Shown piece after piece: positions 39,501 through 42,500 of a DNA stretch of 64,000 bases. Every line of letters starts with the position of its first letter. Within the stretch, counting starts at the first letter, position 1. Source of the DNA: Escherichia coli (GTDB taxonomy: Bacteria; Pseudomonadota; Gammaproteobacteria; Enterobacterales; Enterobacteriaceae). The stretch lies in the NCBI RefSeq assembly GCF_003991155.1, contig NZ_CP031293.1; one strand, given 5' to 3'. The position numbers are program-made.

Positions 39501-42500
39501 GCGCCTGGCCAACGCCAGATGGTCGTCATATTGACCAGATCACTACGGTACTGAACCAGCTGAAAAACGACCCGGATTCGCGCCGCATTATTGTTTCAGC
39601 GTGGAACGTAGGCGAACTGGATAAAATGGCGCTGGCACCGTGCCATGCATTCTTCCAGTTCTATGTGGCAGACGGCAAACTCTCTTGCCAGCTTTATCAG
39701 CGCTCCTGTGACGTCTTCCTCGGCCTGCCGTTCAACATTGCCAGCTACGCGTTACTGGTGCATATGATGGCGCAGCAGTGCGATCTGGAAGTGGGTGATT
39801 TTGTCTGGACCGGTGGCGACACGCACCTGTACAGCAACCATATGGATCAAACTCATCTGCAATTAAGCCGCGAACCGCGTCCGCTGCCGAAGTTGATTAT
39901 CAAACGTAAACCCGAATCCATCTTCGACTACCGTTTCGAAGACTTTGAGATTGAAGGCTACGATCCACATCCGGGCATTAAAGCGCCGGTGGCTATCTAA
40001 TTACGAAACATCCTGCCAGAGCCGACGCCAGTGTGCGTCGGTTTTTTTTACCCTCCGTTAAATTCTTCGAGACGCCTTCCCGAAATTTTGCAACGTCCTG
40101 CAACGGCGTAAATAGTCCGGAAGATGCGCCGAAGAAATAGAAACTGGCCCTCGTCTTTTTTTCTCCTCGCTCCATACTGCCGGCATGAAAACACAACGTG
40201 GTTATACGCTGATTGAAACGCTGGTCGCGATGCTGATTCTGGTCATGCTAAGCGCAAGTGGGCTCTATGGCTGGCAATATTGGCAGCAGTCGCAACGGCT
40301 TTGGCAAACCGCCAGCCAGGCGCGGGACTATTTGCTCTATTTACGTGAAGATGCCAACTGGCATAACCGCGACCACAGTATCAGTGTTATCAGGGAGGGG
40401 ACGTTATGGTGCCTTGTGAGTTCCGCTGCTGGGGCCAATACCTGTCATGGCAGTTCACCATTGGTCTTTGTGCCACGCTGGCCCGAAGTCGAAATGAGCG
40501 ATCTGACACCTTCGCTTGCTTTCTTTGGCCTGCGCAATACCGCATGGGCCGGGCATATTCGCTTCAAAAACTCAACGGGCGAGTGGTGGCTGGTGGTTTC
40601 GCCGTGGGGAAGACTCCGGCTTTGTCAGCAAGGAGAAACAGAAGGATGCCTGTAAAAGAGCAAGGTTTTTCTCTGCTGGAAGTGTTGATTGCTATGGCGA
40701 TCAGTAGCGTATTGTTGCTGGGGGCTGCACGCTTTCTGCCTGCGTTACAGCGTGACAGTTTAACGAGCACCCGTAAGCTGGCGCTGGAAGATGAAATCTG
40801 GCTGCGGGTATTTACCGTTGCGAAGCATCTCCAGAGGGCGGGTTATTGTCATGGCAGCTGTACCGGCGAAGGGCTGGAAATTGTCGGACAGGGTGACTGT
40901 GTCATTGTGCAGTGGGATGCGAACAGTAACGGTATCTGGGATCGCGAACCGGTAAAAGAGTCCGACCAGATTGGATTTCGTCTGAAGGAGCATGTGCTGG
41001 AAACGCTACGCGGTGCGACATCCTGTGAAGGTAAGGGCTGGGATAAAGTGACTAATCCGGATGCCATCATTATCGACACTTTTCAGGTTACCCGTCAGGA
41101 TGTCAGCGGCTTCTCGCCGGTGTTGACGGTTAATATGCACGCTGCCAGCAAGGCTGATCCGCAAACCGTGGTGGATGCCAGCTATAGCGTGACAGGATCC
41201 AACCTGTGAACCGAGAAAAGGGTGTTTCGTCACTGGCTCTGGTCCTTATGCTGCTGGTTTTGGGTAGCTTGCTATTACAAGGAATGAGCCAACAGGATCG
41301 CAGTTTTGCCTCTCGCGTGAGCATGGAAAGTCAGTCATTGCGCCGCCAGGCCATCGTTCAGTCGGCGCTGGAGTGGGGAAAAATGCACTCCTGGCAGACG
41401 CAGCCCGCAGTTCAGTGCTTACTGTACGCTGCCACCGGTGCCCGGGTTTGTCTGCGTTTATTGGCAGATAATGAGGCCTTATTGATTGCCGGTTATGAAG
41501 GCGTTTCGTTGTGGCGAACAGGCGAAGTCATCGATGGAAACATTGTTTTTTCGCCACGCGGCTGGAGCGATTTTTGTCCGCTGAAAGAGAGGGCGTTATG
41601 TCAGCTTCCCTGAAGAATCAACAAGGCTTTAGTCTGCCGGAGGTAATGTTGGCGATGGTGTTGATGGTGATGATTGTCACTGCGTTATCGGGTTTCCAGC
41701 GAACATTAATGAACAGTCTTGCCAGCAGAAACCAGTACCAACAGCTCTGGCGGCATGGCTGGCAGCAAACGCAACTGCGTGCGATTTCGCCACCTGCCAA
41801 CTGGCAGGTCAACCGAATGCAGACATCGCAGGCGGGATGTGTCAGCATCAGCGTTACGCTAGTTTCACCCGGGGGCAGAGAAGGCGAGATGACCCGCCTG
41901 CATTGCCCGAATCGTCAGTAGTCAGGAGCCGCTATGTTAAGGGTCTACCATTCCAATCGTCTGGACGTGCTGGAAGCGTTGATGGAGTTTATTGTCGAAC
42001 GCGAACGGCTGGACGATCCTTTCGAACCAGAGATGATTCTGGTGCAAAGTACCGGTATGGCACAGTGGCTGCAAATGACCCTGTCGCAAAAGTTTGGTAT
42101 TGCGGCAAACATTGATTTTCCGCTGCCAGCGAGCTTTATCTGGGATATGTTCGTCCGGGTATTACCGGAGATCCCCAAAGAGAGCGCCTTTAACAAACAG
42201 AGCATGAGCTGGAAACTGATGACTCTGCTGCCGCAACTGTTGGAGCGCGAAGACTTTACCCTGTTGCGGCATTATCTGACTGACGATAGTGACAAGCGAA
42301 AACTGTTCCAGCTTTCTTCAAAAGCGGCGGACCTGTTTGACCAGTATCTGGTCTATCGTCCGGACTGGCTGGCACAGTGGGAAACAGGACATCTGGTAGA
42401 AGGGTTGGGAGAAGCACAGGCCTGGCAAGCGCCGTTGTGGAAAGCGTTGGTGGAATATACCGACGAACTTGGGCAACCGCGCTGGCACCGCGCCAATCTC

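Follow-up and report, generated by a model that had tools for sequence, protein, structure and literature searches.

A minor-pilin operon head-to-tail with recC in Escherichia coli and a candidate recC promoter embedded in ppdC

The genes ppdA, ppdB, ygdB and ppdC of Escherichia coli very probably form a known minor-pilin operon placed head-to-tail with recC in a layered transcription unit, with the recC promoter embedded in ppdC. The analysis was performed on a stretch of 64,000 nucleotides of E. coli (assembly GCF_003991155.1, contig NZ_CP031293.1), here called the window, and positions are those of the window unless K-12 coordinates are given. Earlier work already covers the operon, the minor-pilin function, the control by Sxy, the position beside recC and the transcript of recC alone. 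What is added here is that the gene junctions are conserved across species and that the recC promoter in ppdC, a small detail, is conserved at the codon level.

Gene organization and junctions

The genes of the locus and the putative ribosome-binding site of recC are located as follows.

40185-40655, + strand: ppdA, minor pilin, prepilin-type, 156 aa (RefSeq annotation)
40646-41209, + strand: ppdB, minor pilin, prepilin-type, 187 aa
41206-41613, + strand: ygdB (DUF2509), 135 aa, GTG start
41598-41921, + strand: ppdC, minor pilin, prepilin-type, 107 aa
41924-41928, + strand: recC Shine-Dalgarno AGGAG, read from the sequence within the 12-nt ppdC-recC spacer
41934-45302, + strand: recC, exodeoxyribonuclease V (RecBCD) gamma subunit, 1122 aa (ORF list, annotation and homologue search)

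The overlaps are 10 nt for ppdA/ppdB (ATGCCTGTAA), 4 nt for ppdB/ygdB (GTGA) and 16 nt for ygdB/ppdC, and a gap of 12 nt (TCAGGAGCCGCT) separates ppdC from recC. These are the lengths given in the initial annotation, and they were exact to the base and identical in RefSeq K-12. The gene boundaries are the same in RefSeq for K-12 MG1655 and for a strain 100% identical to the window, and the locus was found in 5425 of 5426 complete E. coli genomes. Genes, order and overlaps in K-12 are those of the window, with no structural difference and 98% identity over the 2.4-kb query 39900-42300. The arrangement had been described as known in K-12, and this was confirmed by the same annotation and by a RegulonDB unit on record.

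The purine-rich Shine-Dalgarno sequence of each overlapping start is located within the preceding gene. In the order of the 10, 4 and 16 nt overlaps, these are AAGGAG/GAAGG, AGGA and GAGAGGG. Direct reading of the sequence showed no start codon between the upstream stop and the leader glycine in either PpdB or PpdC. Because the leader must end in Gly before F-S-L-x-E, and no later start codon is present, 10 and 16 nt are minimum overlaps. The GTG start of ygdB is backed by the conserved N-terminus MNRQRG(M/V)SSLALVLLL and by a full-length match (1-135/135) to NCBIfam NF008569; in several genera ATG is found at the same position.

The four pilin-like proteins

The gene names derive from 'prepilin peptidase dependent', and cleavage and N-methylation of the products by prepilin peptidase are predicted. 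A leader glycine and Glu5 were found in PpdA (G/YTLIE), PpdB (G/FSLLE) and PpdC (G/FSLPE), the slash marking the cleavage position. Pfam N_methyl was above its cut-off in all three (E = 3e-7 for PpdA), and matches to TIGR02532 above the cut-off were observed for the prepilin-type proteins. PpdA matched the NCBIfam equivalog PRK10506 (E = 1e-74), with a weak N-terminal match to GspH. PpdB matched PRK10557 together with a weak match to GspJ, and PpdC matched Pfam T2SSppdC in addition to N_methyl, as well as NCBIfam PRK10332. YgdB (G/VSSLA) has the glycine and the hydrophobic helix and departs from the pattern in Glu5 alone. YgdB is regarded as a pilin-fold protein without Glu5, and its predicted structure resembles GspI, GspK and minor pilins. 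The pilin fold, a long N-terminal alpha-helix on an antiparallel beta-sheet, was found for the prepilin-type set. Sequence searches of the PDB with PpdA and PpdB gave nothing useful.

In the literature, a reconstituted assembly system for the E. coli PpdD type IV pilus includes the four ppd/ygdB genes and labels them minor pilins. The initial annotation had called the pilin-like genes functionally unexplained. This description is outdated, as the literature treats them as PpdD minor pilins, as Sxy-regulated and as counterparts of the Haemophilus influenzae comNOPQ genes.

Conservation of the overlaps and translational coupling

Overlapping same-strand gene pairs are not rare in this region; 7 of 26 pairs in the 50 kb around the locus overlap, and 4 of 23 do so outside the ppd cluster. 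Overlaps as such are thus common, and it is their conservation across species that is beyond chance. Among 28 Enterobacteriaceae species, the ppdA/ppdB junction was -10 in 19 and -7 in 8, the ppdB/ygdB junction was -4 in 24, the ygdB/ppdC junction was -16 in 24 and the ppdC-recC junction was +12 in 19. An AAGGAG-type Shine-Dalgarno for ppdC is conserved in the 3' end of ygdB. Conservation of the overlaps and of the Shine-Dalgarno sequences extends to further families. A stop/start overlap with a ribosome-binding site in the upstream ORF is found conserved in 24-27 of the 28 species. In the 27-sequence Enterobacteriaceae alignment, the region of the recC Shine-Dalgarno, GTCAGGAG, is nearly invariant, with GTCGGGAG in a few species.

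The overlaps, the internal Shine-Dalgarno sequences and the conservation across genera fit the signature expected if translation of the four pilin cistrons is coupled. From these features we infer such coupling; overlap alone is no proof of it. The extension of one coupled transcript to recC, as previously proposed, holds in part. The pilin cistrons overlap in a conserved manner, no terminator intervenes and single reads cover ppdC and recC, but a recC start lies inside ppdC. On the recC-only mRNA the ppdC start is missing, which precludes coupling of recC translation to that of ppdC.

Transcription of the pilin genes

The following elements were considered upstream of ppdA and within ygdB.

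40018-40048, + strand: lgt-thyA intrinsic terminator, GC-rich hairpin with core CCGACGC / GCGUCGG followed by eight U
40049-40184, + strand: ppdA upstream region, from the conservation profile; Sxy/CRP-dependent per literature
41467-41479, + strand: minor internal promoter in ygdB, -10 GATAAT at 41467-41472 and start at 41479, giving a ppdC+recC transcript

The terminator hairpin folds with -16.6 kcal/mol (z = -2.9). Only five runs are conserved in the 27-sequence alignment, and the T-tract of this terminator (40039-40048) is among them. Some read-through into ppdA occurs in K-12, where a transcript covering lgt, thyA and ppdA starts from TSS 2966116. Upstream of ppdA, TTTTGCAA at 40086-40093 is conserved and resembles a CRP-S half-site whose position 6 is C. 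TGCAA recurs at 40099-40103, and CAtACT at 40173-40178 is conserved as well. CRP-S sites are 22-bp CRP sites with C (or G), not T, at half-site position 6 (half-site consensus in PMC1635313). A crude CRP scan gave no clear palindromic CRP-S site or convincing second half-site upstream of ppdA, and a pattern search for CRP-S over the whole window was uninformative, with 307 matches against 314 expected, which is chance level. No Shine-Dalgarno was seen before the ppdA ATG. According to PMC12616744, which cites Sinha 2009 and Jaskolska & Gerdes 2015, the E. coli ppd operon is Sxy-regulated, its induction requiring both Sxy and CRP-cAMP.

The internal start at 41479 corresponds to a row of the K-12 SMRT-Cappable-seq dataset for b2823 and b2822 (2962883, reverse). 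Conservation of the GATAAT hexamer stops at Escherichia and one Citrobacter, and the ygdB-internal promoter was therefore treated as lineage-specific and minor. Full-length K-12 reads span ppdC and recC on one molecule. No transcript from the ppdA promoter is recorded in this dataset, in M9 or in rich medium. RegulonDB, as reproduced in Supplementary Data 2 of SMRT-Cappable-seq, holds the units ppdAB-ygdB-ppdC-recC and recC, and one paper handles ppdAB-ygdB-ppdC-recC as a single polycistronic mRNA. No data on the ppd-recC locus were found in the supplementary files of Conway 2014, Kim 2012 and Ettwiller 2016.

No terminator between ppdC and recC was found by consensus scan and folding, and 12 nt leave no room for one. 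The consensus promoter/terminator scan returned no promoters on the + strand; as it missed the thyA terminator and the mapped recC promoter, it was not used as negative evidence. Sigma-70 and CRP scoring of the locus gave weak candidates only and did not flag the recC promoter. No Rfam match was obtained for 39900-42300, and no unusual RNA structure was found from ppdA to recC.

A candidate recC promoter inside ppdC

The candidate promoter was placed as follows.

41821-41856, + strand: recC promoter, embedded in ppdC (K-12 mapped start and conservation)

The start of a recC-only transcript, NC_000913.3 2962506, corresponds to window position 41856 (A), which lies within ppdC, 78 nt ahead of the recC start codon. 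It was taken from the published K-12 SMRT-Cappable-seq dataset of full-length capped transcripts, and window and K-12 are 100% identical across the promoter stretch. A -35 box CAGACA with 4/6 consensus matches is present at 41821-41826, followed after a spacer of 16 nt by the -10 hexamer CAGCAT at 41843-41848. Only 3/6 consensus positions are matched in the hexamer, among them the A of position 2 and the T of position 6. It is preceded by an extended -10 element, TGTGn at 41838-41842, with TG at 41840-41841 within TGTGT. The start is 8 nt past the promoter-like block. A primary 5' end 6-8 nt past such a hexamer, the TGn motif and a -35 box at a distance of 16-18 nt would together make this an extended -10 type sigma-70 promoter.

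The conserved block consists of CAGACA, 10 variable nt and GATGTGTCAGCATC. No conserved run in the 2.16-kb alignment of 27 sequences is longer than the latter, which is invariant, as is CAGACA. The invariant footprint in ppdC is accordingly 14 nt plus 6 nt, and the rest of the gene is about 55% conserved. Codons that are invariant in amino acid were also invariant as codons in 6/6 cases in the block versus 1/123 elsewhere (Fisher, p = 1.2e-9, a value that overstates independence since the 27 sequences are related). An exact 11-mer of the block was found in 27 of 28 Enterobacteriaceae species. The block is absent from families with a longer ppdC-recC spacer, and several of these longer spacers bear promoter-like pairs of the TTGCAA type and the TA(A/G)AGT type.

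recC thus reads as having a candidate promoter of its own, based on one high-throughput start-site dataset and on conservation, and it is independent of the long ppd transcript. An independent promoter and a terminator ahead of recC were the features named in the initial annotation as speaking against a single transcript. The promoter is present, inside ppdC and not in the intergenic spacer, and there is no terminator. A 12-nt spacer hence does not imply a gene without its own promoter. With the promoter in upstream coding sequence, deletion or recoding of ppdC could unintentionally lower RecC and thereby RecBCD activity, which is relevant to anyone deleting or refactoring ppd genes. Beyond correct annotation the finding has little importance. 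The codon-invariant block is a clean, testable case of DNA serving as both protein code and promoter.

Two further observations concern the block itself. In Mangrovibacter the CVSI peptide is kept through other codons, with AGC changed to TCC within the CAGACA/TGTGTCAGCAT block. The conserved block also contains ATG 41837, from which an ORF of 92 aa opens in an alternative frame. This ORF was set aside, because its ATG precedes the start of the recC-only transcript and because it crosses the beginning of recC in a different frame.

Proposed organization of the locus

In the proposed organization, transcription of lgt-thyA would stop at the intrinsic terminator. The promoter upstream of ppdA would be silent unless Sxy acts with CRP, as described in the literature, and would then yield a polycistronic mRNA for the four pilins. 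Ribosomes would pass from cistron to cistron by way of the overlapping stop and start codons and the internal ribosome-binding sites. This may supply matched amounts of the four subunits, which presumably build the priming or tip complex of a DNA-uptake pseudopilus or of the PpdD type IV pilus. Because no terminator follows ppdC, transcripts that reach ppdC run on into recC, as seen for the K-12 ppdC+recC transcript. recC itself would be driven from a separate sigma-70 promoter, weak, constitutive and of the extended -10 type, which is codon-invariant across Enterobacteriaceae, and the 12-nt spacer would provide it with a strong and conserved ribosome-binding site. A weak constitutive promoter agrees with the amount of RecC in ordinary growth, about 5 molecules per cell. 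Other Enterobacterales families have a longer ppdC-recC spacer, in several cases with a promoter-like pair in it instead. Sxy-dependent read-through into recC would most simply be a by-product.

Linkage across genomes and alternative explanations

Adjacency of the ppd genes and recC in shared orientation was observed across many Enterobacterales families, and is described in the literature for Pasteurellaceae. This would be explained if the linkage were adaptive, with Sxy-induced read-through raising recC and tuning RecBCD for incoming DNA, whether this is used as a nutrient or recombined. The lack of a terminator before recC agrees with this, and a functional link to transformation has been proposed by the authors of PMC12616744. 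However, several lineages have lost the linkage with no obvious cost: in Dickeya, recC-recB-recD is elsewhere with its own promoter and the ppd genes still adjoin thyA; in Budvicia and Erwinia mallotivora, genes are inserted between ppdC and recC; and in a reduced genome thyA is followed directly by recC. No pilin genes were found upstream of recC in Vibrio, Photobacterium, Gilliamella and Endozoicomonas, and the linkage is absent in Vibrionaceae, where Sxy reportedly activates competence promoters. Two RecC representatives that were examined, neither of them apparently from Pasteurellaceae, had no four-gene pilin cluster upstream of recC. Furthermore, recB and recD lie in a separate unit behind ptrA, so that extra RecC alone would not yield more holoenzyme. 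An adaptive linkage is for these reasons considered unlikely. Pilin genes next to recC are an old but dispensable synteny in Enterobacterales (and, per literature, in Pasteurellaceae). An extended form, in which Sxy read-through transiently raises RecC relative to RecB and RecD during uptake and the constitutive recC promoter moved into ppdC with compaction of the junction in Enterobacteriaceae, is regarded as equally unlikely. If it were true, the handling of incoming DNA would be changed, and protein code and promoter DNA would be frozen together at synonymous sites.

It is very unlikely that the block in ppdC is not a promoter and represents instead a regulator site, an RNA element or a codon requirement for Cys-Val-Ser-Ile, with the 5' end as a processing artefact. 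The CVSI peptide is itself conserved, and is retained in Mangrovibacter with other codons; GCAGACA / TGTCAGC can be read as an imperfect inverted repeat, and the -10 hexamer is weak. Against this, the 5' end was obtained with a triphosphate-capture method and therefore represents primary transcripts, and it is at the canonical distance from the block. The two boxes are 10 non-conserved nt apart, like a promoter spacer, and synonymous sites are frozen at the block alone. The leader has neither an unusual RNA fold nor an Rfam match, and an RNA-element reading of it was rejected, as its fold is no more stable than that of shuffled sequences (z = +0.9).

That recC is expressed by way of one coupled mRNA begun at the ppdA promoter, its output depending on transcription and translation of the pilin genes, is scarcely credible and largely refuted already: the terminator-free 12-nt spacer, the RegulonDB unit ppdAB-ygdB-ppdC-recC with the paper treating it as one polycistronic mRNA, and the ppdC+recC transcript observed in K-12 agree with it, but the recC-only start at 41856 is at a promoter under codon-level purifying selection, the ppdA promoter gave no transcript in M9 or rich medium despite some 5 RecC molecules per cell, and recC works with the pilin genes deleted, displaced or separated from it by inserted genes.

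Comparison with known systems

The preferred organization, a minor-pilin operon with an embedded recC promoter, can be compared with several known systems. In Haemophilus influenzae, comNOPQ (pulG-HI0941) comprises four prepilin-type genes of similar size in one operon regulated by Sxy/CRP-S according to the literature. Like the E. coli genes, comNOPQ is described as directly upstream of recC in the same orientation. That the four E. coli genes adjoin recC has been in print since 2006. E. coli ppdA-ppdB-ygdB-ppdC are considered orthologues or Sxy-regulated counterparts of comNOPQ (PMC12616744), although the sequence similarity is too low for BLAST. Rates of E. coli transformation are given as very low (10^-7 to 10^-8) in PMC12616744, where E. 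coli is described as a species not usually regarded as competent.

The set also resembles GspH-I-J-K of type II secretion and FimU-PilV-PilW-PilX of Pseudomonas, each with four co-encoded small proteins bearing class III signal peptides, and YgdB lacks Glu5 as do GspK/PilX-type subunits. Differences are that the profile matches to GspH (PpdA) and GspJ (PpdB) are weak and below the family cut-offs, that the ppd/ygdB proteins are much smaller than GspK, and that the cluster has no pilY1-like adhesin gene. Unlike typical minor-pilin sets, it is unlinked to major pilin or assembly genes and is joined to a DNA-repair gene.

A downstream start inside the preceding ORF, as for recC in ppdC, is found for internal promoters of complex operons, and many such operon variants were reported for E. 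coli by SMRT-Cappable-seq. Compared with other embedded promoters, the recC promoter has an unusually clear evolutionary footprint of dual coding.

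Gene organization and junctions

The window is E. coli chromosomal DNA. The region 39900-42300 was 100% identical to strain 2016C-3878, 98% identical to K-12 MG1655, and was matched in 5425 of 5426 complete E. coli genomes. Direct translation gave the gene boundaries listed below, and RefSeq has the same boundaries for K-12 and for the strain identical to the window.

Genes of the thyA-recC region (window positions, by direct translation)
39206-40000, thyA
40185-40655, ppdA
40646-41209, ppdB
41206-41613, ygdB (GTG start)
41598-41921, ppdC
41934-45302, recC

The overlaps of 10, 4 and 16 nt reported in the initial annotation, followed by a 12-nt spacer before recC, were exact by direct translation and in agreement with RefSeq. 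In ppdB and ppdC no start codon occurs from the upstream stop to the Gly codon, and 10 and 16 nt are therefore minimum overlaps. The GTG start of ygdB was backed by a conserved N-terminus, by an ATG at this position in other genera and by a full-length match to the NCBIfam model. Overlapping junctions are ordinary in themselves, and their conservation is the informative part; overlaps occur in 7 of 26 same-strand gene pairs of the surrounding 50 kb, among them ptrA/recB (8 nt) and recB/recD (1 nt). Downstream, a 175-nt gap separates recC from ptrA (window 45302-45478 and downstream), and the ptrA/recB and recB/recD overlaps just named come next (locus record L003, 10274-18523). K-12 data give ptrA (2959461) and recB (2956198, within ptrA) start sites of their own.

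For comparison, diverse RecC proteins were collected and 33 of them aligned, and the alignment was used to retrieve 80 recC loci from different species. The pilin genes were located in these loci by tblastn with the E. coli proteins, followed by start calling. The order thyA-ppdA-ppdB-ygdB-ppdC-recC was kept in nearly all Enterobacterales families sampled. Among 28 Enterobacteriaceae species the ppdA/ppdB overlap was 10 nt in 19 and 7 nt in 8, the 4-nt ppdB/ygdB and 16-nt ygdB/ppdC overlaps were each found in 24, and the 12-nt ppdC-recC spacing in 19. An AAGGAG-type ribosome-binding sequence within the 3' end of ygdB, before ppdC, was conserved, as was GTCAGGAG upstream of recC. Conserved overlaps combined with ribosome-binding sequences are what translationally coupled cistrons typically show, and on this sequence evidence the genes are probably coupled.

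A conserved recC promoter within ppdC

ppdC and recC were aligned from 26 Enterobacteriaceae loci and the window. Although the ppdC protein is conserved only about 55% between genera, CAGACA (41821-41826) and GATGTGTCAGCATC (41836-41849) were invariant at every codon position in all of these sequences. The G preceding CAGACA (41820) was nearly invariant, and the 10 nt between the two elements varied freely. Only five conserved runs of at least 6 columns were present in a 2.16-kb alignment (thyA 3' end to recC +166), the longest being the 14-mer GATGTGTCAGCATC. Among degenerate codons for invariant amino acids, 6 of 6 were codon-invariant in the block versus 1 of 123 elsewhere (Fisher p = 1.2e-9, for sequences that are related to one another). 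The block reads as a putative sigma-70 promoter, with a -35 box CAGACA, a 16-nt spacer, an extended -10 TGTGn and a -10 box CAGCAT. A start site near 41855 was predicted from this layout, and the published K-12 start was then found to be window position 41856. Full-length sequencing of capped K-12 transcripts (Yan et al. 2018, PMC6131387, Supplementary Data 2) placed the start of a recC-only transcript at NC_000913.3 2962506 (reverse strand); the transcript is classed as 'same' as a RegulonDB recC unit. This position is window 41856, and 41810-41940 is identical in the window and K-12. The recC-only mRNA does not contain the ppdC start codon, so on that mRNA translation of recC cannot be coupled to ppdC. 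A 92-aa alternative-frame ORF (41837-42115, plus strand), which has its ATG in the invariant block (GGATGTGTC) and crosses the recC start out of frame, was judged incidental; its ATG (41837) lies upstream of the recC-only transcription start.

Other transcripts were listed for MG1655 grown in M9 glucose and rich medium (PMC6131387). A transcript covering ppdC and recC begins within ygdB at 2962883 (window 41479), 7 nt past a GATAAT hexamer conserved no further than Escherichia and one Citrobacter. One RNA molecule can thus carry both ppdC and recC. An lgt-thyA transcript reads through into ppdA, RegulonDB holds the overlapping units ppdAB-ygdB-ppdC-recC and recC, and no transcript from a ppdA promoter appears in the table for these two media. 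A classic hairpin with eight U lies downstream of thyA; no credible terminator, Rfam element or unusual RNA structure was found from ppdA to recC. A consensus promoter and terminator scanner applied to 39800-45600 missed both the thyA intrinsic terminator and the experimentally mapped recC promoter, and its negatives in this region are therefore unreliable. The initial proposal of one coupled transcript into recC thus holds for a tight, probably coupled pilin operon continuous with recC, whereas expression of recC comes mainly from the gene's own conserved promoter within ppdC. During normal growth a cell contains about 5 RecC molecules, a level that fits a weak constitutive promoter.

Other lineages and separation of the pilin genes from recC

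The exact 11-mer TGTGTCAGCAT was present in 27 of 28 Enterobacteriaceae species, always within ppdC, and absent from the loci of all other genera sampled, including Erwinia, Pantoea, Yersinia, Serratia, Pectobacterium, Hafnia, Morganella, Proteus and Budvicia. In Mangrovibacter the CVSI peptide is kept with different codons, and CAGACA is absent. Most of the genera sampled outside Enterobacteriaceae have a ppdC-recC spacer of 31-351 nt, the exceptions being one Serratia (spacer of 10 nt), a small number of uncertain start calls and insertions in Budvicia and Erwinia mallotivora. A TTGCAA-type box and a TA(A/G)AGT-type box, about 17 nt apart and about 45-60 nt before recC, recurred in the spacers of seven Erwinia, Pantoea, Tatumella and Mixta loci (L025, L028, L054, L059, L061, L062, L074). 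The pair looks like a candidate intergenic recC promoter replacing the one embedded in ppdC. A similar -10-like hexamer was seen in the ppdC-recC spacers of Hafnia (L030) and Yersinia (L026).

The pilin-recC linkage is dispensable. Dickeya dadantii retains its ppd genes beside lgt-thyA and ptr, and its recC-recB-recD operon, with a strong promoter of its own, is located elsewhere (PMC9239193 supplement). The junction is broken in Budvicia aquatica by an opposite-strand ORF of 393 aa that resembles flavin oxidoreductases (L035, 4537-5718, minus) and in Erwinia mallotivora by a 261-aa ORF on the same strand whose N-terminus resembles a signal peptide (L057, 5107-5892). In a reduced genome (L086; GCA_002933355.1, PDKU01000004.1) the series mutH, a NUDIX gene, lgt and thyA leads straight into recC and recB; the four pilin genes are absent, as is ptrA, in effect a natural deletion. 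No pilin-like ORFs were found upstream of recC in Vibrio, Photobacterium, Gilliamella and Endozoicomonas.

Identity and regulation of the pilin-like genes

The prepilin motif, in which (F/Y)xxxE comes after a leader with a terminal Gly, is present in PpdA, PpdB and PpdC (Pfam N_methyl), and each pilin-like protein matched a full-length NCBI equivalog model. Weak similarity was seen between the PpdA N-terminal part and GspH, and between PpdB and GspJ. The description of the cluster as functionally unexplained does not agree with the literature, which treats the four genes as Sxy-regulated minor pilins and comNOPQ counterparts. Cameron and Redfield (2006) took them to correspond to Haemophilus pulG-HI0941 (comNOPQ) because both sets adjoin recC, and in both Pasteurellaceae and Enterobacteriaceae comNOPQ is stated to lie upstream of recC and to share its orientation (PMC12616744, 2025). 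The E. coli operon is reported to be Sxy-regulated, with ppdA as its most strongly induced gene (PMC12616744, a secondary citation for Sxy). A function for Sxy-driven read-through into recC is considered unlikely here. Everything essential at the locus is already in databases and papers, and the sole addition here is the cross-species evidence of a recC promoter frozen into the ppdC coding sequence of Enterobacteriaceae.

A reconstituted E. coli system for PpdD pilus assembly includes all four genes, there called minor pilins, and required an improved ppdA ribosome-binding site. This fits the missing Shine-Dalgarno sequence ahead of ppdA in the window. The ppdA upstream region contains a conserved half-site-like TTTTGCAA; a full CRP-S palindrome was not found there. 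Two TGCAA pentamers 10 bp apart (TTTTGCAAcgtccTGCAA, 40086-40103) are conserved in the thyA-ppdA spacer across Enterobacteriaceae. The first is similar to a CRP-S half-site carrying C at position 6, and the pair forms direct, not inverted, repeats. A conserved CAtACT hexamer was observed 6 nt before the ppdA ATG (window 40173-40189); if this acts as a -10 box, the ppdA transcript would have little or no leader.
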